IMG/VR virus record: IMGVR_UViG_2671180963_000003
DNA: 35,090 nt
Reading direction: 5' to 3' (one strand)
Origin: a virus
Taxonomy: Duplodnaviria > Heunggongvirae > Uroviricota > Caudoviricetes
Under the pieces are notes generated by a model. It did no database searches. It worked only from the letters and a program-made list of their open reading frames with translations, and was not told where the DNA came from. Positions 4,669-33,477 of the stretch are shown piece after piece. The stretch's first letter is position 1. Every line of letters starts with the position of its first letter. The position numbers were made by a program, and so were the translations under genes.

Positions 4669-5496
4669 ATGAATACTGTTACCGTTATGAATACTGCTAA
4701 AACTGCTTCCGTGTCTCTGGTTGTTGATAACACCAAACCGCTGACCATGTCTTCTCGTCAGATCGCTGAATTTGTTGATAAGCGCCATGATAACGTTGTT
4801 CGCGATATTCGTAAGATGCTGAACGAGTTAGAAAAAGATGTCCTCAAATTTGAGGGCATCTATCTTGACCAATATGGACGCGAGAAAATCGAATATCACT
4901 TAGACGAAGAAATGACTCTGACTCTTGTCACTGGTTACGATGTTAAGCGTCGAATGATCGTTATTCAGGAATGGAAGCGACTGAAAGAAGAAAATGAAAA
5001 ACTGCGTTCTCAGCAAATCAACCCTTACGCAAACATGACTAAGCTCGACTGGATTCGTGAGGCAATGGAATTGGAAGCCGCAAACGAACAACTGATTCAA
5101 GAAAAGAAACAACTGGTTGAATTGCATGTTCGTAAAGCTATCGACACACACAGTCTTAGCCGCTTATTAGGCGAAAAACGAGGCTCTACGACGGTACAAA
5201 TGATTCTGAAAGGTTTATGTGCTGCTGGTGTTCTTGAGCGTCGTCTGGATGCTTCTGGTAAGCCTAAAGGCTATGATCTGCTTCCTCCTGGCTATATGTT
5301 CGCTCGTATGTCGGCACACGGTCAGATCGAGTTCACTGCTGATGCTATCCCGCATCTCGTAAAACTCGGATTGCTTGAAGAAGAAAAGGCCGCAACTTTG
5401 AAATTGCCACAGCCGAACAACTCACGAGCAATCATTAATAACACTGCTTTGCTGATTCGTCAGAATGCTGGCTCTCTGGAAGTCTTCGGACTGTAA
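4669..5496 (+). CDS. Rha-family phage regulatory protein (antirepressor-like)
   Basis: N-terminal motif LTMSSRQIAEFVDKRHDNVVRDIRKM resembles the Rha domain signature as recalled from memory; 275 aa; AAGGGG Shine-Dalgarno. Confidence 0.6.
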   Translation: MNTVTVMNTAKTASVSLVVDNTKPLTMSSRQIAEFVDKRHDNVVRDIRKMLNELEKDVLKFEGIYLDQYGREKIEYHLDEEMTLTLVTGYDVKRRMIVIQEWKRLKEENEKLRSQQINPYANMTKLDWIREAMELEAANEQLIQEKKQLVELHVRKAIDTHSLSRLLGEKRGSTTVQMILKGLCAAGVLERRLDASGKPKGYDLLPPGYMFARMSAHGQIEFTADAIPHLVKLGLLEEEKAATLKLPQPNNSRAIINNTALLIRQNAGSLEVFGL

Positions 5497-6642: not shown

Positions 6643-8550
6643 ATGAAACTAATTTCTAATAAGGCCAAATTAAAAAAGATTCTCAAAAATGCAGCCAAAT
6701 ATATTACGCCACCGCCTAAACTCCTTCCATCGGAATGGTGCGAAGCTAATATGGTGCTGGTAGATGGTCCTCAAGCTGGGGATAAAGTTAAATTGCTGTC
6801 ATTCCAGAAAGGTATGATTGATGCTCCTTTCCTTGAGAACAAGAAAAAGTATGTTCTGATGACCAGTGCGCAGATCGGAAAGACTACCATCTTGAACGGC
6901 ATCCTGTTTAACCAGATGGCTAACGATCCATGCAATATGATTATCGGACAATCAACCGCTAAAGAAATGTCTCAATATCTCGCTGGTAAGATCCGACCGT
7001 CTATCGAAGCATGTGATGCATTAAAAGACGTGGTTACAGACAAGAATGATCGCAATGCGGTTAACAACAATAACCAGCTACAGCTAAAAACGAATCACTT
7101 CCTGTACATGGTATCGCTAACCAGTCCATCGACCCTGCGCGGTAAGACTGCAAAGGTCGGACTACTAGACGAAATCGATGCTGCTACAGCCTCAGAAGAA
7201 GGTGATCCGGTGGCACTGGCTGCTAACCGTTTAACTACCTTTGGCGACGAAGGCCGATTAGTCGTATCCAGTACCCCGACCAGTAAGCTGGGAAGCATTA
7301 ACCAGCAATGGTTATCAAGCGATATGCGTATGTTTTTTGTTCCGTGTCCTCATTGCGGGGAACACCAGGTGATCGAGTGGGAAAACGTTCAATTTGAATG
7401 GCGTAACATCGATGGTAAGAACTTACCCGATCCTGATACCGCTCGTTATATTTGCCCCCACTGTAAGAACGCATGGACAGAAGGAGAGCGGATCAGGGCG
7501 GTGGCTGCTGGTGAATGGCGAGTAACCCGTGAAAGTGAAGTAGCCGGATTCTGGATCAGCCGTCTGTATTCACCATTCAGCACGATCCGCGCTTGTGTGG
7601 TTGATTTTAGTCATGCGTGGCAATCCTTTGATCTACAATCATTTTATAACACCGTGTTAGGCAAGGTATACGACGATCAGGACACGGCAGTAGAAGCAAA
7701 TGAACTGGAACAACTCAAAACAGATGTTTCTATCGAGAATATCCCTGATGACGTGATTTTCTTGTGTTCAGGAATTGACCAGCAATTGGACCGCGCAGAA
7801 TCTACCATCTTAGGTGTAGCGAAAGATAAGGTTTACATTCTGGATCACCGCAGCTTTTACGATCATAACTGTGAACGATATGAATCACCTGTTTGGGATC
7901 GCCTGGTTAACTTCAAGAAAACCAAATTCTATAACGTTAATGGTGAACGTGTACCAATGCTCGCCAGCTTCCTTGATACATCGAACGGTCGATTCACTCA
8001 AGCCGGATACCGTATTTGCGGCAAGTGGAAGAATCTACACGCGATCAAAGGTAGTTCATCTGGTAATGCTCCAGTGATTCCGGTTAAACCTACCCGCACA
8101 GGTGGTCATGAATTGCTTATGCTGGGTGTTAACGTTGGTAAATCCGCTGTTCGTGAAATGCTGGTTAGAAACCTGAAAGATAATCCTCATATTGGCTTAG
8201 AAATATCAGAAACCGTTCCTGATGATTATCTCGATCAGCTTTTGAGTGAATCCATCAAGCGTACTACTACTGGCGTGCGTTGGGTGAAAAATCCAGGTAG
8301 TACCCGAAACGAGGCTCTCGACTGTCTGGTTTATAGCTATGCTGCTTCTCGCTACGTTCTTTCAAAAATGTCATGGGATAAACTCATTGCAATGAAAGAC
8401 AGCTTAAACCGTGTTGTCGAAGAATCCGTAGAAGCTCCTAAATCGCAATCTGACGAGCAAATAGAAGAAACTAAGCCAATCACACGACCACAACGTCAAA
8501 ACATCGCCAGACGTCCAAATAGAGGCCGTAGCTGGGTAACATCGTTCTAA
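6643..8550 (+). CDS. terminase large subunit (lambda GpA-like)
   Basis: 635 aa; Walker A-like SAQIGKTT near residue 75; paired Cys motif CPHCG...CPHCKNAW typical of GpA-type terminases; sits at the head of the morphogenesis module; GAGGG Shine-Dalgarno. Confidence 0.8.
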
Positions 8551-9127: not shown

Positions 9128-10639
9128 ATGTTTAATCTTTTTCGACGCAATAAGGCGGTAGAGACTCCAGTTAAAACTAATCACCGCCAGCAACAACAAA
9201 AAATCTTTATCGACAAACAAGTAGAAAAATTCCAGAAAGATTTGTCTAAGCGTTCTTTGGGCTTGGTCGGTGATCGCATTGATGGATCGCTTCAACAAGA
9301 TACCATTACAGGAACCTTCAATAAGGCTCTCAAATCGAACGGTAAGCGCCTTTATGATCAGGGTCGTACTCTGGCCTTAAACACTTCCGTAGGCAGTCGC
9401 TACACGCAATACATAACCGATATGGTGGTAGGTACTGGCCTAGATCCGAAGCCGTCAGTTGTTAAATCAAACGGCAAACTTGATAGCGCACTGAATAAGC
9501 AGATCGAGAATGCTTTCTGGAAGTGGGCGCAGAATGCTAAACGCTTCTCTCGTAACGGTCGCTTTAACTTCCGTGAACTGCTGGTAATGGCTGAACGTGA
9601 GCGCGTTATGGGTGGTGAGTGCTTCATTGTTTTAACCAAAGAAAACAATGAGTTAAATGTTTCTATCCTGTCTGCTGATAAGTGCGACTGGACACTCAAC
9701 CGTGAAGTAAGCAAAGAACGCGCTATCTATCAAGGTGTGGAGTATGACGTGGACACAATGCGCCCTGTTGCATACTGGTTTCGTAAAGTCAATCTACTGA
9801 CTCAGACCTACACTGGTGATAACTATCGTGTCGATGCTTCGCAAGTATGCCATTATTATCAACCACTTGCGGCTGAATCTCTGCGTGGTGTGACTGACTT
9901 CCTACCAGTGATTAAGGATATCGCACATCAAGACGCATTCCGCGAAACTGCGATCATCCAGAAACGCATTGCAGCTAGCTCTATGGGCTTTATCGAACGT
10001 CCGAAAGATTCTGGTGACGATTTTGATACTGGTGAAGAGGATGAACAATATCAAGCGCCGGAAGTAGTACAGGATTTTGCACCGGGTACTATTCAGGAAT
10101 TGCCGGAAGGGGCAACGATCAAGAGCATCCAGGCGACGCAAAGCGGTGATGACTTCAATTCCTTTAACGATGCGATGTTTACTAGCGTATCAATGGGCTT
10201 AGGCGTGTTTAAACAGGGCTTGACTGGTGACACTAGCCAAATAAATTACTCATCAGCACGCTACGGCGAATTACTTCAACGCACACGCATTAAAGCACTG
10301 CAAAACAAATTAATTGAAACAGTGGTATTGCCAATTTTTGAAGCGTATCTACGCCATTATTCCGCGCGTGGTATTGTTCCGATTCGTATTACTGCAATTC
10401 CGCATATTATCGACAACACTACTATTATTCGTCCGCGTTTTGAATCCGTCGATCCTATTAAAGACGTAAACGCCGAGATTGCTTTAATTGATAAAGGACT
10501 TAAATCACGTACTGCCGTTATATTAGAACGTGGTGATGATCCTGAAAAAGTATTCTCAGAGATTCAAGCCGAAAAGAGCGCACTAAATATTATCGTTGAT
10601 GGCGAGGGTGAAGAAAAAAATTCCCCAGCCGATCCCTAA
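9128..10639 (+). CDS. portal protein (by position and size)
   Basis: 503 aa ORF immediately after the terminase/gpW-like genes and before the protease-capsid gene; AAGGGGTAA Shine-Dalgarno; no motif-level confirmation. Confidence 0.6.
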   Translation: MFNLFRRNKAVETPVKTNHRQQQQKIFIDKQVEKFQKDLSKRSLGLVGDRIDGSLQQDTITGTFNKALKSNGKRLYDQGRTLALNTSVGSRYTQYITDMVVGTGLDPKPSVVKSNGKLDSALNKQIENAFWKWAQNAKRFSRNGRFNFRELLVMAERERVMGGECFIVLTKENNELNVSILSADKCDWTLNREVSKERAIYQGVEYDVDTMRPVAYWFRKVNLLTQTYTGDNYRVDASQVCHYYQPLAAESLRGVTDFLPVIKDIAHQDAFRETAIIQKRIAASSMGFIERPKDSGDDFDTGEEDEQYQAPEVVQDFAPGTIQELPEGATIKSIQATQSGDDFNSFNDAMFTSVSMGLGVFKQGLTGDTSQINYSSARYGELLQRTRIKALQNKLIETVVLPIFEAYLRHYSARGIVPIRITAIPHIIDNTTIIRPRFESVDPIKDVNAEIALIDKGLKSRTAVILERGDDPEKVFSEIQAEKSALNIIVDGEGEEKNSPADP

Positions 10640-10684: not shown

Positions 10685-12688
10685 ATGCTTAAATTTCGCC
10701 GCGAACTTAACGGTTACGGTGGAGTTATTAACGAAGGGCATAACGATCAATACGAATTTGAAATTGCTTTCTCCAGTGAACAGCCGTATCAGCGCCAATT
10801 CTGGGATGAGCAAAATCAAGAAATGGTGGTATTAGATGAAATTCTGGTACATACACCGGAAGCGGTTGATCTGTCTCGTCTGAATAATAACGCTCCGTTG
10901 CTGTTCAATCATAATTTCGATAATCATTTAGGTGTCGTTTGTAACGCTCGAATCGATGCGGATAAAGTAGGCCGTGCGACCGTTAGATTCTCTAAGCATG
11001 GCACTTTGGCTAATGATATTCGTAATAAAGTCATTGAAGGTACGATGGAAAAAATTTCTGTCGGCTATGACATTAAAGAATATCACATCGATTATGCCAA
11101 AGGACAATTGATTGTTACTAAGTTTGTTCCTTTCGAATTAAGTTTTGTTACGGTCCCGGCGGACGATTCGGTCGGTTTAAATCGCTCTCTAAATACTATC
11201 ACAGTTAATTTGGAGGCTAAACGCGATATGACTAAAGAACAAATCGAAGAAATCAAAGAAGAACAAGAATCCGCTCAGGTTGAAGAAACTCCGGTAGAAG
11301 AAAATAAAGAATCGGAAGTTGAAGAAACTCAAGAGCGCCAAGTTGAAGAGAATGAAGAAAATGAAAATCTCGAAGACGGAAAAGACGCTGAACATCCTGA
11401 AAGTGTTGATGATGATAGTTCAACTGTTCGGGAAACAGAAGAAGTAAAAGAAGAACGTGAAGCCGCTCCGGTTGAAGAAGAAAAAATCGAAGAAGTGGCT
11501 GAACGTTCCGAAGAAGACGAATTAGAAATTCGCGAAATTGCACGCGAACTAAATATTGACGACGAAGAATTAAAACGCGCATTGGCAGTTAAAGATATGA
11601 CGCCGGAAGCATTCCGCACTAAGGCACTAAATAATCTCGTCAATGCTCAACGTAATAACGAACAAATTAATAAGGAACAAATCATGGAAAAAACTTTTGA
11701 CCTGAACAACGTAATTCGCTCTCTGGTAGATGGTGAAGCTCTGGGTGCTAACGAAGCCGAGTTTTCTGCAATGGCTGCTACTGCAACTATGCAGCGTGGT
11801 CGTGCTGCTCGCGGTGGCTCTGTATTCGTTCCGACTGCTGCTATGCGTGCTGCTGCTGATGGTAACACCAAAGCTACTCTGACCGCTGTAACCGACGAAA
11901 AACTGCTGAATGATTCCTATGTAGCGATGCTGTTGCCGGAATCCGTTCTGGGTCGTCTTGGTGTGAAAGTCCTGTCTGGTCTGACTTCTCCGACTGCTAT
12001 TCCGAAAATGACCGCTTCCAGCGTTGAATCTTTCGGCTTCGTTGATGAAAACGGTGCTGCACCGGAAGGTAAAGCTGAATTTGCAAACGTGAAAATGGCT
12101 CCGAAAACTTTTGCTGGTGGCAACCCGATCAGCCGTCAGTCTCTGAAAACCGTTCCGGGCATCGCTACCCTGATCACTGATCACATTAACCAAGCTGTTC
12201 GTGTCAAACTGGAACAACTGATTCTGTCTGATAAAGAAAATGCTCGTGGTCCGGCTGGTGTGATTAAGCAACTGGTTGATGCAAGCCGTGTTGAGAAGAA
12301 AGCTGCTTTCTCTTACAAAGACTTCCTGAAAGAAATTGCTAAACTGACCGACGCTGGCGTTCCTGCTCAGGCGATCAAGTTTGCGATGAGCGGTGCAACT
12401 GCTGCTGAACTGGAATCTACCCTGAAAGATAACGGTGTTTCCGGTTATATCATCGAAAACGGTAAACTGGCTGGTTACGACGTAGTTACTTCTGGTGTTA
12501 TTCCGGTAGACCACATCGTTCTGGGTGACTTCTCCGCTATTACCATCGGTGAATGGGGCGGTCTGGAACTGGACATTGACGACACTACCTACCGCGCACA
12601 GTCCGCAATTGTTCCGCGTATCTGGGTAGATCTGGATTATGTAGTTACCCAGCCGGAAGCTCTGAAAGTTCTTCACGTCTCTGAATGA
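10685..12688 (+). CDS. prohead protease - acidic linker - major capsid protein fusion (HK97-like)
   Basis: N-terminal ~170 aa carries LLFNHNFDNHLG and KISVGYD, resembling the prohead protease (S78) His and Ser motifs; residues ~190-300 are an E/K-rich low-complexity linker (scaffold/delta-like); the C-terminal ~350 aa has composition and length expected of an HK97-fold capsid protein. Confidence 0.7.
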   Translation: MLKFRRELNGYGGVINEGHNDQYEFEIAFSSEQPYQRQFWDEQNQEMVVLDEILVHTPEAVDLSRLNNNAPLLFNHNFDNHLGVVCNARIDADKVGRATVRFSKHGTLANDIRNKVIEGTMEKISVGYDIKEYHIDYAKGQLIVTKFVPFELSFVTVPADDSVGLNRSLNTITVNLEAKRDMTKEQIEEIKEEQESAQVEETPVEENKESEVEETQERQVEENEENENLEDGKDAEHPESVDDDSSTVRETEEVKEEREAAPVEEEKIEEVAERSEEDELEIREIARELNIDDEELKRALAVKDMTPEAFRTKALNNLVNAQRNNEQINKEQIMEKTFDLNNVIRSLVDGEALGANEAEFSAMAATATMQRGRAARGGSVFVPTAAMRAAADGNTKATLTAVTDEKLLNDSYVAMLLPESVLGRLGVKVLSGLTSPTAIPKMTASSVESFGFVDENGAAPEGKAEFANVKMAPKTFAGGNPISRQSLKTVPGIATLITDHINQAVRVKLEQLILSDKENARGPAGVIKQLVDASRVEKKAAFSYKDFLKEIAKLTDAGVPAQAIKFAMSGATAAELESTLKDNGVSGYIIENGKLAGYDVVTSGVIPVDHIVLGDFSAITIGEWGGLELDIDDTTYRAQSAIVPRIWVDLDYVVTQPEALKVLHVSE

Positions 12689-12825
12689 ACTAACGTAGAA
12701 CCTTCTGAACCTTCCCCCGATTTGGGGGAAGAAAATCTGATTCCATCTCAGGAAGAAGAAGTTCAAGAGGTTACGGCGAAAGCCACAGTTAAAAAAGAAC
12801 GTAAGACTAAAGCAAAATAATAATT

Positions 12826-12852
12826 AGCCCTGCCTAACGGTGGGGCTTTTTT
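12826..12852 (+). terminator. rho-independent terminator after the capsid gene
   Basis: 9 bp stem AGCCCTGCC/GGTGGGGCT (two G-U pairs), TAAC loop, TTTTTT. Confidence 0.6.
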
Positions 12853-12882
12853 GTATGTAAATACTCCATAAAGGGGGTAACT

Positions 12883-13173
12883 ATGTTCAAATTATCAGAA
12901 TCACAATTATCAAGAATGTTTAAGAGTGCTCCTGTATTTTCGGTGGAAGGTGGTAAATCAATTCGTGCTTATCATGAAATTACTACTACCGACGAACAAG
13001 GGGTAATTACAGAATCAGAATTTCTATTTTGTCGTGAGGGAGACTTAAATCAGGGTGATGTTGTCATTGTAGACGGTGAACGCTTCAAAGTTCAATACGT
13101 TAAGCGCAATGGTGATAATACTTCTGATTGCTTTATTGCTCGTGCAGGGGGTACACATGCTCGCTACCGTTAA
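12883..13173 (+). CDS. head-tail connector/head completion candidate
   Basis: 96 aa ORF, AAGGGGGTAA Shine-Dalgarno, directly downstream of the capsid gene; assignment by position only. Confidence 0.4.
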   Translation: MFKLSESQLSRMFKSAPVFSVEGGKSIRAYHEITTTDEQGVITESEFLFCREGDLNQGDVVIVDGERFKVQYVKRNGDNTSDCFIARAGGTHARYR

Positions 13174-13579
13174 TAATATGCCTAGACTGAAAATCAAACG
13201 CGCCTTGCAGGATATTATCGAACAAGATTTAGGTCTGGCTTTAAACGTAGAACAAACTCAGCAAGGCTTTAGTGATGACGTGGTTTGTTGGATTACTGGA
13301 ATGAATGAGACTTACACTAGGGTCCGTGGTGGTAATGCAATGCAAGCTGAATGCGTTATCGAAATGCAGTTGTATTCTCAGAATCATGAAACCAAAATTC
13401 ATGAGGGTATTTGCCAGATAATCCAGATTCAGCCGGATAACCCACGTTTTAAAGATTTGGGCTTCTCTATTTCAGATATCACTCCAGTAGCCTCTAATAC
13501 CGATTATGACGATGATTCTAGTGATGGGGGTATCGTTGGGACACTTAGCCTTAAATTTTCTTATGTAGCGCGTTTTTAA
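13157..13579 (+). CDS. neck/tail completion candidate
   Basis: Start moved to the ATG at 13157 (AGGGGG Shine-Dalgarno 6 nt upstream), overlapping the previous gene by 17 nt; 140 aa; assignment by position only. Confidence 0.4.
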   Translation: MLATVNNMPRLKIKRALQDIIEQDLGLALNVEQTQQGFSDDVVCWITGMNETYTRVRGGNAMQAECVIEMQLYSQNHETKIHEGICQIIQIQPDNPRFKDLGFSISDITPVASNTDYDDDSSDGGIVGTLSLKFSYVARF

Positions 13580-13588
13580 GGGGTAATA

Positions 13589-14422
13589 ATGAATATTACA
13601 CAAGATAACTTAGACATTTTCACGGGGTCGCATGTTGAAGTCTCCGTGTCTACTATGGTGGATAACCAGCCGGACTTTTTCGATCCTGCATTTAGTCCTA
13701 TCGAGAACATCGCAGCATTCCCTACGATCACCGAATCCACAGAGATCCAGACGTTAGAAGAATATAACCATGATGTTACTGGTAAGTTGGCTGGCTATCG
13801 TAAACTTGAATCAACAACACTCACAGTAAACCGTGTTCTGGATGATGAACATCAAGCAATGTTGATGAAAGCGGTAGAGGATAAAACCCCTTTACGCTTC
13901 CGTATGTTCTATGTTGTGAACTCTGGCTATAGTGCTGCTAACACAGGATACTACGTCATTTTTGATGCATACGTCACATCACACAAAACCCGTGGTAGCG
14001 ATAACAAAGTTACTACCATCGAATTTAAATTAGATCCTGATGGTGGGATTCTCGACCGTGGTATTGCCACCGAAGGCCGGATCTTACGTCAAGGTGATTT
14101 TGGTTTGGGCGCTGGTGTACATCCATTCACAGGTCCGATTGATAGCGAAGCATTAGCCGGAAACCGTTTCGTAACTTATCAGGGATCGAGCGTATCTAAT
14201 CCATTTAGTGCTGATACTTCACTAATTCACGTTCAACCTAATGAAGATGGTGGATGGCAATTAACTTGCACCGCTTCCGGCGCACCACGTTTACGAGTTC
14301 GCACAGTCCAGAAAGACGGTAATTCTGGATGGGTGAAAGTGTATTCCACAGAAGAAAAACCGACACCAGCCGAGATTGAAGCCGTTTCTATCCATGACCG
14401 GATCGACTTCGGGGAATACTGA
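13589..14422 (+). CDS. structural protein of unknown role sharing a motif with the tail fibre
   Basis: 277 aa, AAGGGGTAA Shine-Dalgarno; C-terminal EEKPTPAEIEAVS parallels GDKPTPAEIGAYS in the tail fibre around residue 368. Confidence 0.45.
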   Translation: MNITQDNLDIFTGSHVEVSVSTMVDNQPDFFDPAFSPIENIAAFPTITESTEIQTLEEYNHDVTGKLAGYRKLESTTLTVNRVLDDEHQAMLMKAVEDKTPLRFRMFYVVNSGYSAANTGYYVIFDAYVTSHKTRGSDNKVTTIEFKLDPDGGILDRGIATEGRILRQGDFGLGAGVHPFTGPIDSEALAGNRFVTYQGSSVSNPFSADTSLIHVQPNEDGGWQLTCTASGAPRLRVRTVQKDGNSGWVKVYSTEEKPTPAEIEAVSIHDRIDFGEY

Positions 14423-14495
14423 TTGCTTCTCTAAATAAAACATGACGCGGGAGGTTAACGCCTCCCTTATTCCTGTTTTATAGTGAGGTGATTCG

Positions 14496-17400
14496 ATGCA
14501 GTCGATCCAATTTAAACGAACAAATGTTTCTGGCAAAAAACCAACGCCGGAACAATTACAGGTCGGTGAGGTAGCAATCAACCTTAAAGACCATGTTATT
14601 TTTACCAAAGACCGAGATCATGAAGTAGTTCAAATCTCTGTTTCTCCTGAAACTCACGCGGCACTAGAATCTAAAGTTGATGCTAACAAACAAGAACTGG
14701 ATAGTACAATTGCAGTAAATGACCGCAATATTCACGCTAAAGTAGATGAAATTAAACAAACTACTGATGCAACCATCGCAGCAAATCACGTAGAAATTAA
14801 CAATAAAGTTGATGTAATTAAACGCGAAACCGACGCGACAATCGATGCCAATAAAAATAAAGCTGCTTCCGACCTTGCTGGTGTTAAAGCTGAATTGTCG
14901 GATACTATCAACGCTAATAAAAATGCGGCTGCTGTAGCAACACAGGAACTGGACACCCGCATCAATAAAAAAGTTGATGATATTAAATCCCGTACCGATG
15001 CAACCATCGCAAGCAATGACAAAGCAATCAATGACAAGGTTGATTTGATTAAGGCCGAGACTGATCGGACTATCGCAGCAAATAAAGCCTATGCGGAAAA
15101 TCAGTTAACTGACACCTACAATAACCTTACTGGTGTGATTGCAGCCAATAAGCAAGAGGCAGCGGATAACGTCGCAGCATTAACCCGTGATGTTGAAGCC
15201 AAAAATTCAGCAATTCATAGCAAAGTTGACAATAACAAGTCTTACACCGATTCCGAACTTGCACGTTTAGAAAGCCGTATTGATGCAGCCGATGGATCTA
15301 GTGACGGTAAGTACATCAAAAAACACGTAAACACTTATACTGATGGTTATTTGCTGTCTAAGACCGCAAACTATTTTGATGATCCAGGTGCTCGTAATCT
15401 TGATTACTTTGGTGCATTCCGTACCAATGATCTAGCTGATCATATTGCAATGATCTTGCATGTTCCGCACCCATCCGGTGTTAATCATGCTCGTGGTTTT
15501 GAGTTCACTTATGGGTCTAATCCACATGCTACGGTAAGAACATACGGCTATGATGAATTGGGTCATTTGGCATATTCTCACCGCATGTATCATGAAGGTG
15601 ATAAACCTACTCCTGCCGAAATTGGCGCATATTCGAAAGCAGAAATTGACCGACTGTTCCAGAAGACGCTTAATTTTGGTATCGAGGGTGGTTGGTTTAA
15701 ACTAGGCACTTTGACAATGCCACAACAACACGGTCGCACCGCTAAGATTCGTTTGGTTGGTGGTAACGGTTATAACGTCGGACAGAATGGACAAGCCAAT
15801 GTTATTGAACTGGTGATCCGTTGCGGCAACAATAGCCCGAAAGGTGTTGTATTCAATGCTTATTATAGCATTTGGTATTACGAACAATATTTTTGCGCAA
15901 TTCCTACCGATGGCGATAATTACGATCTTTACGCTTACTACGGTGCACATACAGGATTTGTTTTAGCAGAATATCAAGTTTCGTCCGGTGGTGTTTCTTT
16001 AAACCTGTTGGATACTCCTGAATATCTGGGTGGTGAAAAACCTGTTGCAGATGAAATTTTTGATGCTCTTAACATTTCATCATTCAATAACTTTAGCAAC
16101 CGTGGAACGTTAAATTTTGGTGGAAACCATCAAGGCCAATATGACATTGAGCATTTGAACGAACAACAAACAAATGCTAAGAAAAAGTTGCGTCGCTTCC
16201 GTAGTTCCGCACCCGCTACTATCTGGCATGAAACTGTAGATGATCAGAATTATCGTCTTGCTACTGGATACGATGATGTAAACCAACAATTATTGCTGTC
16301 GGCTGCATCCGGTTTGCATATTCGTAGAATGACCATTGATGGCGGTTTAGGTGGAAACTCAGCAATTGATTTTCGTCGTGGTCCAAATGAATCATGTCAT
16401 TTAAACTTCTTTGATTATCGCACTGGTACAGATGTTCGTAATGGCTGGTTTGGCTTCGGTGATGGTCAGACCAAAGATTTTATTTGGTGGAACGACAACG
16501 GTCAAAACTCTATAAACCTGATTGAAGACGGTGAATTACATATTACTGGCGGTAGAGGCCAGAAAATTGTAATGAATAGCGAAGTGGCATTATCTGAAAA
16601 TGCTCGTTTGGCTGTCAAAGGTGGTAACTATGGTTTAATCCTTCGTAATGATGGTTCTAGCTTCCATATTCTTACTACCGATTTAAAAGATTCCTTTGGG
16701 ACGTGGAACACTCGTAGACCATTTAGTTATGATTTCGCCGAAGGTGGATTAGATCTAGGTGGCACAGCTACCGCACGCTGTTTACATCTGGGAATTGATG
16801 GTAGCACCCGCATCGAAGATAATATGGTGTTTAGATCAGGGTCTCGTCAGTCAATGGACTATATTGAATTAATCCATTGGGGTAACAGTAATACAGGACG
16901 CAATAACGTTTTGAGTATGCGAGATTCCAAAGGTTTCTTGGCTGAATTTGAACGCGTGGGGGGTACTAACGGCGTTAAAACCAGATTCTTTGGCGAAACA
17001 TTCACTGATGGTACATTATACCTAAATCAGATGAATAATAGCTCTGAACGATTCTCTATTAATAATTGGGGAAATTCAGAAGTTGGTCGCGCGGCAGTAA
17101 TGGAAGTTGGCGATTCCAAAGGTTATCACTTCTATACTGAACGTAGGACAGATGACACCGTTTTATTTGATGTATCTGGTGCTTTGACCGTGCATGGACC
17201 TAACGGAATAACCGTCAAAAACTCAACTGGTGCACGCCATATCTGGTTTAGAGATGATAGCGATACGGAAAAGGCTGTTATCTGGGCTACAGATGAGGGT
17301 ATTTTACATATTCGCAATAACCACGGTGGACAATTTACACATCACTTCCAGGGCGCGATGATTAAACTGGAAGGGCGTGTTCCTTATGCCGCAGATCAAG

Positions 17401-18020
17401 GACTTATCCGTGGTGAGGTTTCTGGTGGTGCATATGTTGCATGGAGAGACCGACCTGCTGGTTTGTTGGTTGACTGTCAACAAAGCGTTGATAGTGCTCA
17501 TGCTATTTGGAAAGCGGTTGATTGGGGGCGTAACTACATCGCTGCTATGGACGTTCATTGTCCCGGTGATAGTAATAATACTGCGGCAGCGGTTCTTCAT
17601 GTTCAGGGTGCTGATTATCAATTCCATGCAAGTGGAGAATTTCATGCCACTGGTAACGGAAACTTTAACGATGTTTATATTCGTTCCGATCGTCGTCTGA
17701 AAATTAATGTTGAAGATTACGAAGAAAATGCGGTGGATAAGGTAAATAAACTCAAAGTTAAAACCTACGATAAAGTTAAATCTCTTAATGACCGAGAAGT
17801 TATAGGTCATGAGATTGGTATTATCGCACAGGATTTACAAGAGGTATTACCGGAAGCTGTTAAAACCGCAAAAATTGGTGGTTTTGATAACCCAGAAGAA
17901 ATTTTAACAATTTCAAACTCCGCAGTGAACGCGCTTTTAATTAAAGCGGTCCAAGAAATGAGCGAAGAAAATAAACTTCTTCGTGAACGTCTTGCTGCAA
18001 TTGAAGCTAAATTAGGGTAA
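14496..18020 (+). CDS. tail fibre with C-terminal intramolecular chaperone (S74-like) domain
   Basis: 1174 aa. N-terminus MQSIQFKRTNVSGKKPTPEQLQVGEVAINLKDHVIFTKD resembles the T4 gp37-type fibre N-terminus from memory; repeated KVDxIKxxTDATIxAN units; WGNSEVGRAAVMEVGDSKGYHFYTERR resembles a T-even fibre domain; C-terminal DRRLKINVEDYEE...IAQDLQEVLPEAV...coiled coil resembles the self-cleaving chaperone of endosialidase/T5 pb1-type fibres. Confidence 0.8.
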   Translation: MQSIQFKRTNVSGKKPTPEQLQVGEVAINLKDHVIFTKDRDHEVVQISVSPETHAALESKVDANKQELDSTIAVNDRNIHAKVDEIKQTTDATIAANHVEINNKVDVIKRETDATIDANKNKAASDLAGVKAELSDTINANKNAAAVATQELDTRINKKVDDIKSRTDATIASNDKAINDKVDLIKAETDRTIAANKAYAENQLTDTYNNLTGVIAANKQEAADNVAALTRDVEAKNSAIHSKVDNNKSYTDSELARLESRIDAADGSSDGKYIKKHVNTYTDGYLLSKTANYFDDPGARNLDYFGAFRTNDLADHIAMILHVPHPSGVNHARGFEFTYGSNPHATVRTYGYDELGHLAYSHRMYHEGDKPTPAEIGAYSKAEIDRLFQKTLNFGIEGGWFKLGTLTMPQQHGRTAKIRLVGGNGYNVGQNGQANVIELVIRCGNNSPKGVVFNAYYSIWYYEQYFCAIPTDGDNYDLYAYYGAHTGFVLAEYQVSSGGVSLNLLDTPEYLGGEKPVADEIFDALNISSFNNFSNRGTLNFGGNHQGQYDIEHLNEQQTNAKKKLRRFRSSAPATIWHETVDDQNYRLATGYDDVNQQLLLSAASGLHIRRMTIDGGLGGNSAIDFRRGPNESCHLNFFDYRTGTDVRNGWFGFGDGQTKDFIWWNDNGQNSINLIEDGELHITGGRGQKIVMNSEVALSENARLAVKGGNYGLILRNDGSSFHILTTDLKDSFGTWNTRRPFSYDFAEGGLDLGGTATARCLHLGIDGSTRIEDNMVFRSGSRQSMDYIELIHWGNSNTGRNNVLSMRDSKGFLAEFERVGGTNGVKTRFFGETFTDGTLYLNQMNNSSERFSINNWGNSEVGRAAVMEVGDSKGYHFYTERRTDDTVLFDVSGALTVHGPNGITVKNSTGARHIWFRDDSDTEKAVIWATDEGILHIRNNHGGQFTHHFQGAMIKLEGRVPYAADQGLIRGEVSGGAYVAWRDRPAGLLVDCQQSVDSAHAIWKAVDWGRNYIAAMDVHCPGDSNNTAAAVLHVQGADYQFHASGEFHATGNGNFNDVYIRSDRRLKINVEDYEENAVDKVNKLKVKTYDKVKSLNDREVIGHEIGIIAQDLQEVLPEAVKTAKIGGFDNPEEILTISNSAVNALLIKAVQEMSEENKLLRERLAAIEAKLG
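14676..15080 (+). repeat. imperfect tandem ~66-69 bp repeats within the fibre gene
   Basis: At least four consecutive units encoding (H/N/K/D)KVD(E/V/D/L)IK(Q/R/S/A)(T/E)TD(A/R)TI(A/D)(A/S)N; a coding repeat, not a separate element. Confidence 0.6.
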
Positions 18021-18058
18021 TTGGAAAGCGGGGAGAAATCTCCGCTAAGGATTCTTAT

Positions 18059-18355
18059 ATGGGATATTGGGTAAGTAGTGAAATTAATACTAAAATCGAT
18101 GCTTTAAAATGGCATGTATTTGATATTCCTAACGGCTATGGTACTGCTCGTGCTGGTGTCGCTGTAATGCGTCATAATGCTGGTGGTGGGTGGTCTGATG
18201 CACATATTAACGTAGATGGTTTGACCGTTGCTCGTCGTCGTGGTGGGACCAATTGGGGATCTACTATAAATTCGTTTGTTCCTGCTGGCTGCACCGTCTC
18301 CTTTGGTTTAGGGGGTGAAGGTGGTGTTGAATATTTTAAATTCATGGAGTTTTAA
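18059..18355 (+). CDS. Gly-rich small protein, paralog 1 of 3 (FDIPNGW family), function unknown
   Basis: 98 aa; AAGGA Shine-Dalgarno; shares FDIPNG(Y/W), a G-rich core and a C-terminal TVSF..G....YFKF with the next two ORFs. Confidence 0.5.
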   Translation: MGYWVSSEINTKIDALKWHVFDIPNGYGTARAGVAVMRHNAGGGWSDAHINVDGLTVARRRGGTNWGSTINSFVPAGCTVSFGLGGEGGVEYFKFMEF

Positions 18356-18357
18356 TT

Positions 18358-18663
18358 ATGGCTGGATGGATAAATCAAAGAATGTCAAACGCTATTAGTA
18401 TTTGGGCTAATGGTGGATATTTTGATATCCCCAACGGCTGGGTTACTGATTCATGCGGAATTGTTTTTGCTCATATGGAAGCCATTAACGGTGCTGGTGA
18501 TCTTGATTCTGAATTGGCTGTAAATGGATTGATTGAATCAGGTCATCATGCTGGTGATGCTGGGAGTTGGGGCGCTAGTTCTTTAGTTGGCGCTGGTGCT
18601 ACCGTTAGCTTTACATTGGGTAAAGGTAGTTTGCATTATTTTAAATTCAGGAGAATGCACTAA
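18358..18663 (+). CDS. Gly-rich small protein, paralog 2 of 3 (FDIPNGW family)
   Basis: 101 aa; GGAG Shine-Dalgarno; starts 3 nt after paralog 1 ends. Confidence 0.5.
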   Translation: MAGWINQRMSNAISIWANGGYFDIPNGWVTDSCGIVFAHMEAINGAGDLDSELAVNGLIESGHHAGDAGSWGASSLVGAGATVSFTLGKGSLHYFKFRRMH

Positions 18664-18965
18664 TGGCATTTTGGGTAGATGGCGCTTTGGGGAATAGGGC
18701 GGGTAAAGCAAATCAAGGATGGTTTGATATTCCTAACGGTTGGACAGCCGACGCTTTCGGGACTATTTCATTCTGTGCTCATTCTTCCGGTGGTGGCGGT
18801 GGTGACTCTGAATTGCTTATTCATGGTTTGTGTGTTTCTGGAAGCCATAAGGGTCATGATTGGGGACAGATTCATTCTTGTATTGCACCGCAAGGGGCGG
18901 TAATTACCGTTAGCACAAATAGGGGGATCGCTCATCTTCGTTATAGACGTTTGAGCAACCGCTAA
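18663..18965 (+). CDS. Gly-rich small protein, paralog 3 of 3 (FDIPNGW family)
   Basis: 100 aa; AGGAGA Shine-Dalgarno; start overlaps the stop of paralog 2 by 1 nt. Confidence 0.5.
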   Translation: MAFWVDGALGNRAGKANQGWFDIPNGWTADAFGTISFCAHSSGGGGGDSELLIHGLCVSGSHKGHDWGQIHSCIAPQGAVITVSTNRGIAHLRYRRLSNR

Positions 18966-19019
18966 ATAAATAGAATTACGGGTATGTGCCCTATTGTTTA
19001 AAATAGAAGGAAAAGAATA

Positions 19020-19490
19020 ATGACTACTAAATTTGATATTTTTTCTGGTGGCCTCGTTGGTCTGTTTCTGCATGAAGAAGTAACTAACACCGATCTTGAC
19101 AGTGAAAGCTATCTGGAAATTCCAGAATGTGCGGCTTTCCCGGAAACTGGTGTAGAACGTTCTACTGTCGATGTTCCTAACTTCGGTGGTCCGTATAACC
19201 GTAAGCTGGTTGGTCGTATGTCTGTACCGGATATCGAACTTTCGATCAACTACATGCCGGGTAACGAAGTACACGAAAAACTGATTAAAGCAACCGAAGA
19301 CGGTAAGCGCGTACAGATTAAAATTGCTTACTACATCGACGCTACGAAAAAATCTGGTGTACATATCGCTTATAACGGCTTCCTGTCTAAAACTACCATG
19401 ACTGGTGGTGAGGATGCTGTAGTAGGCCGTACCTTCACCTTTGTAGTAGATGGTGCTCCGGTTAAACAAGCTGTTTTCCAGAAACTCTAA
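19020..19490 (+). CDS. major tail tube protein
   Basis: 156 aa; immediately upstream of the chaperone pair and tape measure gene; followed by a strong terminator; AGAAGG Shine-Dalgarno. Confidence 0.65.
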   Translation: MTTKFDIFSGGLVGLFLHEEVTNTDLDSESYLEIPECAAFPETGVERSTVDVPNFGGPYNRKLVGRMSVPDIELSINYMPGNEVHEKLIKATEDGKRVQIKIAYYIDATKKSGVHIAYNGFLSKTTMTGGEDAVVGRTFTFVVDGAPVKQAVFQKL

Positions 19491-19499
19491 TATTATCTA

Positions 19500-19523
19500 G
19501 CCATCCTTCGGGGTGGCTTTTTT
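19500..19523 (+). terminator. rho-independent terminator after the tail tube gene
   Basis: GCCATCC-ttcg-GGGTGGC followed by TTTTTT. Confidence 0.65.
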
Positions 19524-19572
19524 GTTTCCAATTCTAAATAAACATATCTAATTAACTTAAGAGGAAACAATA

Positions 19573-19881
19573 ATGAATATTAATGAAATGTTAGCCGCAC
19601 TTTCTCCGAAACGCGAATCTCTGACCATCGGTGGATTTACGTTCTATGCTCGCCCTATGTCGGTGCAAGAATATAATGAACATGTTTTCAATACTGATAA
19701 AAAAGACCGAGATGAACGTTCTATTTTTCGTTGTATTGAAGATGAAGACGGTAAGCCAGTATTTGAATCTATGGAACAAGTTAAGGCATTGTATACTAGC
19801 GTCCGTAGCGAATTAATCGGCTTAGTTGCTCAAGTGTCATTGATGCAAGATCCGGCAGTAATTGAAAACGAGGTAAAGTAA
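19573..19881 (+). CDS. tail assembly chaperone (gpG-like)
   Basis: 102 aa ORF between the tail tube and tape measure genes; GAGGAAA Shine-Dalgarno. Confidence 0.55.
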   Translation: MNINEMLAALSPKRESLTIGGFTFYARPMSVQEYNEHVFNTDKKDRDERSIFRCIEDEDGKPVFESMEQVKALYTSVRSELIGLVAQVSLMQDPAVIENEVK

Positions 19882-24003: not shown

Positions 24004-24423
24004 ATGCTAAAAACTAGGCTTATCACCGATTACATCAATTCTTTAATAGGTCAGGAGTTCGTTCAAGGCGAGAATGATTGCAATATAATTGCATGTAAGA
24101 TCATCGATATTCTCGCTGGTACTGACCTATATAATTCTCTTTATAAAAAATATTCAACTAAAGAAGAAGGCTTGAAAATCTGCAAAGAATTAAGCGGATA
24201 CACAAATATCCTTCAACCAATTAAGAAACATTTCAAATTAGTCACTGATGATTTACAGGACGGCGACTTACTGGTCACAGCCCACAAATTAGGAAACCGC
24301 AAATATTATTCCGTAGTTCCTCATTATTCCGGTTATGGCCTCGTTGAAGAAGATGGTATCTGGATGACCATTCCTGTTTCAGACATTGACTATGAACAAG
24401 TTTATAGATTCGGGGGTGAATAA
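24004..24423 (+). CDS. tail tip assembly protein candidate (gpK position, possible NlpC/P60-like fold)
   Basis: Start moved to ATG 24004 (GGAGGT 8 nt upstream); the Cys in GENDCNIIAC and the His in PHYSGYG are compatible with a Cys/His peptidase; 139 aa. Confidence 0.4.
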   Translation: MLKTRLITDYINSLIGQEFVQGENDCNIIACKIIDILAGTDLYNSLYKKYSTKEEGLKICKELSGYTNILQPIKKHFKLVTDDLQDGDLLVTAHKLGNRKYYSVVPHYSGYGLVEEDGIWMTIPVSDIDYEQVYRFGGE

Positions 24424-27400
24424 TGGGATTTGAAATATTAGTAGGCGCGGTTATTGCTGGTGCGTCTGCTGGGATGGCTGCTGCTGCAACATTTTCTGTT
24501 ATGACCGCAGTCGCTATCGGGATGGCTGCAGGTGCAATGACCTTGATCGCTTCCACTGTAGGCGCACCAAAAACACCGAAAGTACAAAGCCCAGATAATG
24601 CGGTGACACTAGGAACATCAAACGATCCGAAAACAGTATTACCCGTTCTTTTTGGTACTACCCGCACGGGTGCAATCTGCGTTTACAAGGCAATTTCACA
24701 GCGTGAAAATAACAAGCTGGTACAAATTTTTGCTATTGCCGAAGGTGAGATCGATCACTTTAAAGCACTGCACATCGATAATAAAAACGTTCTCATTAGC
24801 CAGAATATGACAATTCGTGATGGCATTCTCGATAAAGGAAACATTAAAGACGAATACCGCAAAGTTTTAGAAGTCGAGTTTCGCACGGGTAAAAATCCTA
24901 ACACTGCATTGGATTTAGCTAAACATCATTTGGGCGCTGATTGGGATGATCGGTATCAGGGTAACGGCATTGCGACCATGTGTATTGTTTTACGTCGTGA
25001 TGACAAATCTTTGGCTGCTGGTGTTGATATTCTCCAGCCTAATAGCCAGGTAGCGGTCGATGTTATGGGCTTAAAGATTCGTAACCTTGAAACCAATGCT
25101 ATTGAGGCTAGCACTAACGGCGTGGACCAGATTTTCCATTATCTGACAAATACAAAGTATGGTCTTAGTGTACCGATTGAAAATATTAACGTTGATTCAT
25201 TCCTGAAAGTGCGTAAACAAGTACGCCAGATGGATTTACATTCCAACGGTGCATGTGATCCGAACGCCAGCTTTAAAGAGAACTTAACTAGCCTTATGCA
25301 GACTTTCGGCGGGGTGATGTTCGAATCCTTTGGACGTATTACGCTGAAACTGGATGCTCCTGATATTGTTAAGCATACCTTCAATGAAGACAATATCATG
25401 ATGGGAAAAGTATCACTGAAAACAGGTGGCACTAACGGTTATTTCAATACCATTAACGCGATGTATCAAGAACCATCAATCGACTATTCAGAGCAAATGC
25501 TACGTTATCCGGCTGATGCTGAAAACGATGCTACTATTCGTCAAGATGGTCGAATTATCGCTAAAGATATTGAATATCGTTTTGTTAAGTCTAAAGCCCA
25601 GATTGATAAACTTGCGAGTGTAGAACGAAATAAATCTCGTATCACTCAGGTTATCAGCTTTATGACTACTGACGCATTCACCGCCGAAGTATGGGACGTT
25701 ATCAGCGTAACCTATGATGAATTGAAACTGAATAATTCACTTTGGCGCATTACTGCAATTGATCGTTCTATTGATTCTGGTATTGCTGGGATGATGACTA
25801 TCACCGCCACAGAATATAATTCTCAGGTTTATACTGACCTGAACTATGCGGCAACTCCAGACAATAGACCTACTGGTTTACCGGATTCAATGACAGTACA
25901 GAAACCGACTAATTTCAGAATTAAGGCAACTGGTGAGACAATCCACGGTAAAAACGTTACTTTGACATGGGATGCACCGGAAGATTTTAACCGCTACGGT
26001 TTCCAGATTGATTACCGTGTAAGTGGATCGCCTAACTGGATTAAGCTGGGGCAGACTTCACAGCAAATTTTCAATATCAATGCACTGGCAAAAGATCGCT
26101 CCTACGATTACCGCGTTTGTGCTTTCGGTATTATTGCTCGTTCCGAATGGGTGGAACTGGTTAACCAGAATCCTACTGTTACCTATGAATTGCCGACTCC
26201 GGTTATTCGAATCAAAAATCAGGGTAGCACGCCTGGTACTTTCGAAGGCAATGATCTGATTATCGAATGGGAAAATCAGCAACAATTAGATGTGATGATC
26301 AACGGTGAAGCTAACAAGTTTAGTGACCTGTTTGAAGCATACATTATCAAGGTAACTAACAAGGCTGGTAAGTCTATTCAGTACCGTACCCGCGATCCTG
26401 AATCATGGACTTATACGCTTGATATGAACCAGTTTAACGGCCTTTCCCGTGAATTGACGGTAGAAGTATCAGTCAAGGGCTATAACAACTCAGAGAGCGC
26501 CCCAGCGCGTTTAGTGGCTATCAACCCACAACATAAGCCGATGAAAGGTTTTAGTGCGCGTGGTGGCTTTAATACTGCGTTTGTTAGCTGGGCGGATGAC
26601 GTAGAACATGACTATGCAGGGTCAATCATCCAGTATGCAACCGATAATACTTTCTCCGATGCAAGGGCAGTGACTACCAATAGCGTTAGTCATACTTCCT
26701 TTGATTTGGCTGACGGTGATTATTATATCCGTGGTGCTCACTATGATATTTTCGGTATGGATGATGCTGTTTGGTCTGAACCGTATTTCATGCAAATGAA
26801 ATCTACCATTAGCTGGGACGATCAGGACAAAGAAGCACTGGAAGACCTGATTGGTTTACAAGATCGCTTAGATGAAACCATCGCGGATGCTATTGCTCAA
26901 GCTGGCGCTAATGCCGATGCTAAGATTGATGCAATGCATAAACAGATTACTACCGAGACAGGGCAGACGGTCCAAGCCTCAGCCGATACTCTCAAGAGTC
27001 TGATTGCTACCAGTGAGCAAGCCAGCGCAACTAAGATTGATCAGGTTAAAGCTGAACTGAAAGGCGATATCACCAAAGAAGTTAGCGCATCCGCTACTAC
27101 CCTGAAACAAGCAATTGCTACCAGTGAGGCAGCAAGCGCAAGTAAGATTGATCAAGTTCGGGTAGAAATGGATGGCAAGATTGCTGGTGTGAATCAGGAA
27201 GCAGATGTAAAAATCGATGCTTTGAAGGGAACCATTAACAGCAAATATAATCTGGCAGTTAATGCAGATGGTCGCGTGGCTGGTATTCATATGAGCGCAA
27301 CCAATGATCCGGCAGAACCGACAAGAATCATCTTTACGGCTGATAAAATCGCGGTAGCTCCACAAGACGGATCAGAAGTTTGTCCGTTTGGTATCGAAGG

Positions 27401-33428: not shown

Positions 33429-33440
33429 ACCATTTCCAAA

Positions 33441-33477
33441 CAAAAACGCCCCTACCGCGTATTATAACGATAGGGGC
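33441..33477 (-). terminator. rho-independent terminator (minus strand) upstream of the recombinase
   Basis: GCCCCTA(c)CG ... CG(a)TAGGGGC hairpin with a U-run on the minus strand; the loop contains TTATAAT. Confidence 0.5.

Follow-up and report, generated by a model that had tools for sequence, protein, structure and literature searches.

How does a phage with a flexible tail carry a side fibre whose gene lies upstream of the tail tube gene? The question is raised by IMG/VR virus record IMGVR_UViG_2671180963_000003, a stretch of 35,090 nucleotides (nt), referred to here as the window, on which all positions below are given. We found that the window is a ~33-kb Escherichia coli prophage with the gene order of flexible-tailed phages, in which a gene for a protein of 277 amino acids (aa) neighbours a gene for a fibre of 1174 aa. 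An earlier description made from the DNA letters alone (the sequence-only reading) had already placed the fibre gene before the tube gene, and this was borne out (14496-18020 and 19020-19490, respectively). It also regarded the fibre as mosaic and proposed that the two neighbouring proteins share an attachment or adaptor module. Our analysis favours, with a rough probability of 0.62, a two-piece side fibre mounted on a flexible tail, in which a paralogue of the tail tube protein (the 277-aa protein, called the adaptor below) holds a gp37-type distal fibre. The features on which the argument rests are as follows.

13589..14422, + strand: adaptor gene, 277 aa (open reading frame, ORF, including stop)
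13616..14074, + strand: predicted tail-tube-fold domain, paralogue of the prophage's own tube protein (adaptor residues ~10-162)
14075..14419, + strand: T-even-type fibre module (adaptor residues ~163-277)
14336..14419, + strand: gp36-type C-terminal connector tail, KVYSTEEKPTPAEIEAVSIHDRIDFGEY (last 28 adaptor residues)
14449..14466, + strand: terminator-like G+C-rich hairpin with a weak T tract, between the adaptor and fibre genes
14496..18020, + strand: fibre gene, 1174 aa, putative Krischvirus gp37 orthologue (ORF including stop)
14496..14645, + strand: gp37-type N-terminal segment, predicted adaptor docking site (fibre residues 1-50)
14658..15290, + strand: 22-residue repeats, ~9 units, predicted alpha-helical coiled coil (fibre residues ~55-265)
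15348..15638, + strand: first gp37 globular module, ending YHEGDKPTPAEIGAYS (fibre residues 285-381)
16428..16730, + strand: Gp34_trimer-type shaft domain (fibre residues 645-745; PF21446, expectation value (E) 1.3e-15)
17358..17684, + strand: variable domain just before the predicted cleavage site, marked by a dip in DNA identity (fibre residues ~955-1063)
17685..18017, + strand: S74 intramolecular chaperone, PF13884 (fibre residues 1064-1174)
18059..18965, + strand: three tandem paralogous genes of 98, 101 and 100 aa, in the slot of gp38 in T4-like phages
19020..19490, + strand: major tail tube protein, 156 aa (phrog_158, E=3.7e-20)

Tube-like domain and C-terminal tail of the adaptor

The N-terminal half of the adaptor, in which the earlier reader overlooked a tube paralogue, matches the phrog_158 profile ('major tail protein', 376 positions) at E=1.1e-8, and the 156-aa tube protein matches the same profile positions. 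The two proteins are also linked directly by BLASTP (E=1e-5), and a profile built from relatives of the adaptor module scores the 156-aa protein at 92.9 bits; at E<=10 this profile reported neither the distal tail protein, nor the hub, nor the neighbouring small proteins. The tube gene proper is the 156-aa ORF located just before the chaperone genes, and the adaptor is its paralogue. Pfam and NCBIfam gave no match for the 277-aa protein. In the AlphaFold2 (AF2) model, most of residues 12-162 reach a predicted local distance difference test score (pLDDT) of 75-94, and low-confidence loops are found at residues 54-69 and 113-115, the former containing E57, L67 and G69, which are invariant across the adaptor family. 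In lambda gpV a long loop of this kind is ordered only in the assembled tube. The best Foldseek matches of the domain in the PDB are 9mfe, lambda gpV (8k36), 80alpha and monocin (E ~1e-6), and the top 50 are tube, Hcp and related tube-fold proteins, with no collar-type domains among them. The YDC107 tail core, the top fold match, was set aside as only a generic tube match; the tube protein of the window has no sequence match to it. By alignment and model, residues ~10-160 appear to be a diverged duplicate of the prophage's own tube protein. Compared with E. coli prophage variants, both halves of the adaptor show a ratio of non-synonymous to synonymous substitution rates (dN/dS) of 0.09-0.18, and the gene is under purifying selection.

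A clear tube paralogue encoded in the same transcription unit as the tube gene could also be a minor tube subunit variant, which would co-polymerise along the whole tail so that fibres or stubs decorate its shaft. Tube proteins with C-terminal add-ons are common, as exemplified by SPP1 gp17.1* and the C-terminal immunoglobulin (Ig) domain of lambda gpV, and the length of phrog_158 points the same way. Yet, a trimeric stem needs three arms close by, which random co-polymerisation would rarely give; the tube-like domain of the relatives carries fibres of ~770-1450 aa, hard to fit many times along a tube; and a separate, shorter tube gene, a strong hairpin and chaperone genes are always present. 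We consider this explanation unlikely.

We weighed in the same way the possibility that the 277-aa protein is a tail terminator or completion protein, which would make the fibres true neck fibres. Its gene occupies the position of lambda Z and U, between FII and V, and tail terminators share the tube-protein fold. However, the adaptor domain is specifically tube-related, both by its 92.9-bit link to the tube protein and by its top fold matches, and in the PHROG and Foldseek comparisons it matches only tube-protein families and no tail terminator families. Terminator-family matches, weak but convergent, are seen only in the neighbouring 140-aa family. The 140-aa protein of the window itself has no family match; its 34 positional homologues gave phrog_78 (1.1e-3), phrog_347 (8.9e-3), phrog_176 (two members, 0.025), PF12691 (0.023) and PF11367 (0.027), and hhalign of the family gave no significant alignment to lambda gpU (E=0.43) or gpZ. 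Judging from the matches of its homologues, the 140-aa protein is probably the tail terminator, which argues against the same role for the adaptor and makes a terminator identity of the 277-aa protein improbable.

The C-terminal part of the adaptor is a T-even-type fibre module. It resembles residues 298-380 of the 1174-aa fibre and internal parts of other long proteins, and its final 28 residues share 46% identity with those of gp36 of the virulent, T4-like Krischvirus phage vB_EcoM_G37-3 (G37-3; pairwise E=3e-5). The extreme tail of the adaptor reads ...AVSIHDRIDFGEY-stop and that of G37-3 gp36 ...AVPLNAVIDFGTF-stop; the G37-3 gp36 C-terminus compared with the adaptor KVYSTEEKPTPAEIEAVSIHDRIDFGEY is ...ELYHEGHKPTPAEVGAVPLNAVIDFGTF-stop, and T4 gp36 ends ...DSVQDFGYY-stop. 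The tail pattern ...KP(T)PxE(V/I)xAV...(I/Q)DFGx(Y/F)-stop is thus present beside a gene with a gp37 N-terminus. A tblastn search of 50,697 phage records with the last 43 adaptor residues listed tail-fibre genes, mostly of T4-like phages; among the matches listed, every one that reaches the end of the query belongs to a Krischvirus-type phage, and the functions named for these are gp36-type connector or generic tail fibre protein. The alignments suggest that the adaptor shares the connector end of gp36; it is not itself a gp36 family member. Trimeric gp36 of T4 attaches to the N-terminal region of gp37 (Leiman et al. 2010, PMC3004832). The prophage appears to hold both halves of this T-even gp36/gp37 joint in adjacent genes, so that the tube-protein copy would stand where the rest of gp36 would be.

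The resemblance noticed in the sequence-only reading lies elsewhere, in the heptapeptide KPTPAEI, which begins at adaptor residue 257 and fibre residue 370 (adaptor C-terminus ...VYSTEEKPTPAEIEAVSIHDRIDFGEY-stop; fibre residues 362-380 ...MYHEGDKPTPAEIGAYS). That it is a match at the protein but not the nucleotide level is roughly right: 17 of 21 nt are identical in the core, with the differences at third positions, and 26 of 39 over 13 codons. The sharing does not seem to come from a recent duplication. A shared 5-mer between the two proteins turns up in 20% of shuffles; for the shared 7-mer we estimate, rather than simulate, a chance of ~1e-3 or less. In BLASTP, adaptor residues 191-267 align with fibre residues 298-380 at 31% identity (pairwise E=0.002).

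A heptapeptide embedded in a similarity that reaches over ~80 residues might itself be the module by which adaptor and fibre recognise each other. Yet, the motif '(Y/F)xxxxKP(T/S)xx(D/E)(I/V/L)' is found four times in G37-3 gp36, a related copy, KKPTPEQL, lies at the fibre N-terminus, and the motif also ends T4 gp36 modules (IYSEYNKPQAADNDFVS). In the fibre, moreover, it is located beyond the ~210-residue coiled coil, far from the end expected to face the virion, and the pairing is better explained by the extreme C-terminal tail of the adaptor and the gp37-type N-terminus of the next gene. Mutual recognition through KPTPAEI is therefore quite unlikely. The motif looks like a generic end of a recurrent T-even fibre domain, not a docking site; sharing it shows both proteins to be composed of T-even fibre modules but is no sign that they touch there, and the pointers to docking are the adaptor tail and the gp37-type N-terminus. 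Of the proposed shared attachment or adaptor module, the adaptor part holds, as this is how the 277-aa protein is best read, but the widely recurring KPTPAEI is not an attachment module.

All 83 clusters of the adaptor family come from Enterobacterales (E. coli, Shigella, Salmonella, Providencia, Edwardsiella and Proteus), and the C-terminal tail is kept throughout the family, across six genera. In 42 related loci of the split form, wherever both genes are intact, the adaptor gene is directly followed by a gene with a gp37 N-terminus, and the two ends vary together: IDFGEY with IQFKRT, IDLGTF with IKFKR, LDAGEF with VRHYRT and IDFGLE with KFKFRR. Longer adaptors of 446-1209 aa have gp36-like rods inserted between the module and the ending, two of them with a Pfam Phage_T4_gp36 domain in the rod, and nearly all keep the ending. 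Among 1.84 billion representative proteins, more than 80 remote relatives carry the ~250-residue module as the N-terminus of a full-length fibre (~600-1560 aa, mostly 700-1350), and several sampled ones have S74 or Phage_tail_C_2 C-termini. Likewise, more than 50 IMG/VR loci (>=15 kb) encode one-piece fibres of ~770-1450 aa in synteny with the window, in the order terminase, portal, protease-capsid fusion, two small genes, fibre and ~150-aa tube gene. Since so many one-piece loci share module and synteny, the tube-like anchor and its position before the tube gene are probably old features of a large prophage lineage, from which the E. coli/Salmonella branch appears to differ by a fibre split at the T-even joint. 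Searches with two remote full-length fibres matched only C-terminal or internal parts and not the tube-like module, and a scan of genome contigs for one-piece forms gave only two loci, in Phytobacter and Yersinia.

The gp37-type fibre, its accessory genes and presumed exchange with T4-like phages

The 1174-aa fibre is collinear from N- to C-terminus with gp37 of G37-3, apart from one large insertion. Residues 285-1174 align with G37-3 gp37 residues 71-954 at 76% identity (891 alignment columns) and residues 1-58 with residues 4-76 at 36%, and the protein matches phrog_1699 ('long tail fiber protein distal subunit') at E=4.5e-139. On this basis it appears to be orthologous over its whole length to gp37 of the T4-like Krischvirus phages, set in another kind of virion. 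The fibre N-terminus, MQSIQFKRTNVSGKKPTPEQLQVGEVAINLKDHVIFTKD, also matches that of T4 gp37 and contains the conserved gp37-type segment (IQFKR...AINLxD...FTKD), so that its T-even-like character, proposed in the sequence-only reading, is confirmed by both alignments.

The repeats of the KVDxIKxxTDATIxAN type named in the same reading are real and have a strict 22-residue period: over residues 51-270, pairs of positions 22 apart are identical in 29% of cases (mostly ~5-10% at other spacings), units begin at residues 82, 104, 159 and 181, and the DNA repeats at a spacing of 66 nt. This ~210-residue region is absent from G37-3 gp37 and sits between the N-terminal segment and the first globular module. 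The period, together with a below-cut-off Pfam match to Apolipoprotein (22-mer helix) at residues 78-249, suggests a helical coiled coil, an insertion relative to gp37 that would add ~30 nm to the fibre. Matches to phrog_8378 and phrog_20472 span residues 268-381. Residues ~955-1063 presumably form the receptor-binding tip, as the variable part of the sequence. The C-terminal self-cleaving chaperone-type domain is supported by Pfam Peptidase_S74 (PF13884, residues 1064-1123, E=4.7e-15) and by PDB 6f45 (Long tail fiber distal subunit), which matches residues 1045-1166. The Ser/Lys dyad looked for in this domain was found in 'SDRRLK', as Ser1064 and Lys1069, five residues apart; cleavage is predicted at Ser1064.

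Since the fibre follows a single known protein from end to end, it is less mosaic than was proposed; the mosaicism shows as a gradient of DNA identity and would have arisen by recombination within one gene family. Identity to G37-3 is 65-68% at 15360-15960 and 83-95% at 16360-17360, falls to 70-74% at 17360-17760 (the presumed tip domain, with flanks of 88-96%) and rises to 96-98.5% at 17960-18960, i.e., over the chaperone end and the three small genes. The match stops at 18981, 39 bases before the tube gene. For the tip region the closest sequence is gp37 of phage vB_EcoM_JE01 (92% identity over 16975-17975). Since the joint would be that of T-even gp36 and gp37, recombination with virulent T4-like phages could swap the distal fibre together with its accessory genes.

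In E. coli OkiPb01713 a gene for a 345-aa GIY-YIG nuclease lies exactly between the adaptor and fibre genes (locus L157, 2245-3282), at a site that corresponds to the intergenic region 14423-14495 of the window, and in a second relative, CFSAN061761, a GIY-YIG gene is also found under the match. The nearest phage homologues of this nuclease are ~30% identical over the full length and come mostly from T4-like phages, many of them Krischvirus-type. Placed at the joint, a free-standing homing nuclease could drive the fibre DNA on either side to be exchanged. More broadly, and somewhat more doubtfully than not, a lineage of ~33-kb Enterobacterales prophages may mount its side fibres through a tube-duplicate ring continuous with the stem, the E. 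coli/Salmonella branch being cut at the gp36/gp37 joint. The joint would then be a universal plug for trading distal fibres and knob-like genes with T4-like phages, in which the GIY-YIG nuclease may help.

The three small genes downstream of the fibre gene occupy the same place as three genes after gp37 in G37-3; over ~100 aligned residues, two of the proteins show 1-2 differences from their G37-3 counterparts and the third shows ~4. They are missing in close prophage relatives with the same adaptor and tube genes, and in other relatives the slot contains an ORF of 263-293 aa. Since they are near-identical in G37-3 and missing in close prophage relatives, the three genes seem to be accessories of a particular fibre type. 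This modifies the earlier placing of the fibre gene between connector and tube genes, as its three downstream neighbours would be accessories shared with T4-like phages, not connectors. In the AF2 model of one ~100-aa paralogue (pLDDT 82), an N-terminal helix precedes a small jelly roll that is weakly similar to C1q/TNF heads and carbohydrate-binding modules in the PDB; regions of phage tail fibre proteins in a viral structure library match it somewhat better, with a template modelling (TM) score of up to 0.69. We take these regions to be head (knob) domains. The small proteins might, at a guess, be stand-alone tip 'knobs', and three paralogues beside a trimeric fibre could possibly form a heterotrimer, by analogy with the C1q head.

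The paralogues share a conserved 'FDIPNGW', and phage KFS-EC has a single gene that is apparently a recombinant of the first and third. In an Edwardsiella-like contig (L006), the gene at 14524-15294 encodes a homologue of the T2/T6-type gp38 adhesin (Pfam Gp38_N and GP38), directly 3' of a gp37-like fibre with an S74 chaperone domain. Gp38-type adhesins and self-cleaving chaperones are usually alternatives, and the combination was unexpected.

The prophage, the proposed assembly and the place of the fibres on the tail

The stretch 12800-19600 of the window is 96.5% identical to a prophage inside hicB of strain ETEC1717, which bears a large serine recombinase gene. A match was found in 55 of 5,426 complete E. 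coli genomes, in 22 of them over 80% or more of the region; the prophage is thus present in ~1% of these genomes, many of them listed as pig enterotoxigenic E. coli (ETEC) strains. Among the 50,697 phage records we found no cultured relative, except for part of an odd record, Escherichia phage DCP80 (PQ671644.1; 141 kb, classified as a T4-like Gaprivervirus). The start of this record (1-23560) is a siphovirus-type structural module syntenic with the prophage, with terminase, portal, capsid, a 698-aa adaptor, a 745-aa fibre, tube protein and tape measure. The record looks like a chimeric assembly or a mixed culture. Outside the fibre cassette, the window contains the following structural genes.

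6643-8550: gpA-type terminase, followed by a 164-aa gene
9128-10639: lambda-family portal
10685-12688: prohead protease-major capsid fusion, 667-aa ORF
12883..13173, + strand: 96-aa head-tail joining protein, weakly lambda FII-like (Pfam Phage_attach, E=2.5e-5)
13157..13579, + strand: 140-aa probable tail terminator (weak matches of positional homologues)
24423-28199: J-type tip gene, 1258 aa, with the lambda J C-terminal receptor-binding domain

The 667-aa fusion ORF combines Peptidase_S78 (residues 40-162) with an HK97-type major capsid protein (residues 410-663), and such a fusion is seen throughout the related loci. The 96-aa protein scores 25.2 bits against Phage_attach, below the 26-bit cut-off (NCBIfam tail_join_FII, E=0.12), and is kept at the same position in related loci. 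The 156-aa tube protein also gives sub-threshold Pfam matches to the lambda tail tube protein. Its gene is followed by G/T-like chaperone genes (weak TAC and Phage_tail_T matches), then by a gene for an 809-aa protein in the tape-measure position, for which no family match was found, and by those for the distal tail protein (186 aa) and hub. In Pfam and PHROG scans of the window proteins we saw no match to sheath, gp34 or gp35 families. Other genes include a large serine recombinase (31749-33443), a Rha-type regulator (4669-5496) and an M15 endolysin (29854-30207). Strong terminator-like hairpins are located directly 3' of the capsid gene (12826-12847) and directly 3' of the tube gene (19499-19518). 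The G37-3 record annotates a terminator 3' of its gp36 gene, in the same place as the 14449-14466 hairpin; the region holds 12 terminator-like sites, compared with 5.1 +/- 2.4 in shuffles.

An element of only ~33 kb, in which Pfam recognised no replication or repressor genes and whose region is interrupted by insertion sequence (IS) elements in some genomes, could be a defective prophage, and the cassette a non-functional leftover taken from a T4-like phage. However, neither ORF is disrupted, purifying selection acts on the adaptor, and the prophage has a full head, tail and lysis gene set. The arrangement is also kept in all the Enterobacterales listed above for the adaptor family and in over 50 loci that are more distant. 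A mere leftover is highly improbable. The element as a whole may be a complete phage, a defective one or a helper-dependent one.

In the two-piece side fibre that we favour, the adaptor's N-terminal domain would be incorporated in the tail as a tube-like ring with six subunits, serving as the fibre anchor. Three of the C-terminal arms would trimerise, so that the six arms of a ring would give two trimeric stems and thus two fibres. The fibre N-terminus would dock on the adaptor tail as gp37 does on trimeric gp36 in T4, and from this joint outward would follow the ~30-nm coiled coil, the gp37 shaft and the variable tip. The S74 chaperone is predicted to drive trimerisation of the fibre and to cut itself off at Ser1064. 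As the phage also has a lambda-J-type central fibre, the side fibres would be accessory, in a lambda-like two-receptor arrangement.

Several points weigh against this assembly. We only infer ring formation, trimerisation, docking, cleavage, copy number and tail position. A six-membered ring with trimeric fibres needs a symmetry mismatch, a problem solved in lambda by flexible linkers (12 collar subunits, 4 fibres; PMC12617516) and likewise in T5 (12 collar subunits, 3 fibres; PMC10038345). The similarity to gp36 is confined to ~28 residues of the adaptor, and because the query similarity is that short, its database-scale E-values are weak (0.5-0.8). PF03903 (Phage_T4_gp36) is not matched by the 277-aa protein even at E<=10; it is matched by G37-3 gp36 and by two long adaptor relatives, P0087 and P0088. 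The AF2 monomer model is mostly of low confidence in the C-terminal half of the adaptor, as is expected of a trimeric fibre domain modelled as a monomer. Neither G37-3 gp36 nor the fibre N-terminus, used as PDB queries, led to a solved structure of the gp36-gp37 joint. Finally, the sole database record with the adaptor module, that of DCP80, is the one that looks chimeric.

For the position of the fibres on the tail, our rough odds are 45% for a site near the tip, as in lambda and T5, 40% for one just below the neck and 15% for any other. Mounting at the neck or collar, as the sequence-only reading suggested, is neither favoured nor made improbable by our results. The gene order, with the adaptor gene after a probable terminator and before the tube gene, hints at the neck end, and function, together with the lambda and T5 precedents, at the tip end. 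A PDB sequence match of adaptor residues 206-262 to the collar spike of Vibrio phage XM1 (7kjk, E=0.62) was not reproduced by the family profile. The neck-binding domain of that spike is an unrelated beta-sandwich, and the match was not used in judging neck mounting.

Comparison with known side-fibre systems

That lambda-like and T-even phages exchange gp37-related fibre ends is a classical finding, and S74 chaperones and side fibres are well known. To our knowledge, the anchoring of side fibres on flexible tails is understood only in a few phages, i.e., lambda, T5 and the T5 relative DT57C. Literature searches on tube-like fibre anchors and second tube proteins in siphoviruses turned up no account of this arrangement, neither of an anchor with the tube fold joined to a fibre stem nor of a siphovirus with a gp36-type connector; the adaptor is probably an undescribed way of mounting side fibres and of swapping them with T4-like phages. 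Side fibres govern adsorption rate and host range. If the proposed assembly is true, a tube duplicate fused to the stem would be a third, simpler anchoring solution, and a gp36/gp37-type joint on a siphovirus would explain how whole distal fibres, and not only tips, move between prophages and T4-like phages employed therapeutically. Such a joint also points to a re-targeting route, by which any gp37-type fibre might be placed on a lambda-like chassis through a 28-residue connector. Since it is found in ~1% of complete E. coli genomes, the prophage would be a realistic reservoir of receptor-binding modules for T-even phages.

Among the closest known counterparts is the gp36 and gp37 half-fibre of G37-3, with which the prophage shares a collinear gp37, the same N-terminal segment, the same S74 chaperone, a gp36-type tail encoded upstream and three nearly identical small genes downstream. 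In contrast to the T4-type fibre, the prophage has no detected gp34/gp35 homologues, contractile tail or baseplate; the gp36 body appears to be replaced by the tube paralogue and one fibre module, and the fibre carries the ~210-residue coiled-coil insertion.

In T5, the tube-protein duplicate p140 forms the ring where the 12-subunit p132 collar holds three pb1 fibres (PMC10038345). Both systems would thus tie a diverged tube-protein duplicate to side-fibre attachment, and both have an S74-type chaperone on the fibre. Yet, the T5 duplicate is bare and is accompanied by a separate Ig-like collar (12 copies), whereas in the prophage duplicate and fibre stem form one chain, and there is no evident collar protein. 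The p140 gene lies among the baseplate genes, the adaptor gene upstream of the tube gene, and p140 and the adaptor have no detectable sequence relationship.

The one-piece prophage fibres, for which we found no experimental study in the literature, possess the same ~250-aa N-terminal module (24-44% identity) at the same gene position, and several have S74 C-termini. They differ in being single polypeptides of ~770-1450 aa, with neither the gp36-type end nor the gp37-type N-terminus.

In turn, Stf of Ur-lambda forms a collar of 12 domains from which flexible linkers lead to four fibres (PMC12617516). Like the proposed prophage fibre, it is an accessory side fibre beside a J-type central fibre, with anchor domains linked to a trimeric stem and a distal part related to T4 gp37 (PMC12617516). 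Its anchor, a small collar domain of the beta-sheet-plus-helix type, surrounds the tube where gpV meets gpM (PMC12617516). Stf is encoded after J as one polypeptide and is Tfa-assisted. The prophage anchor, in contrast, has a predicted tube fold and is encoded before the tube gene, and its fibre is split at a gp36/gp37-type joint.

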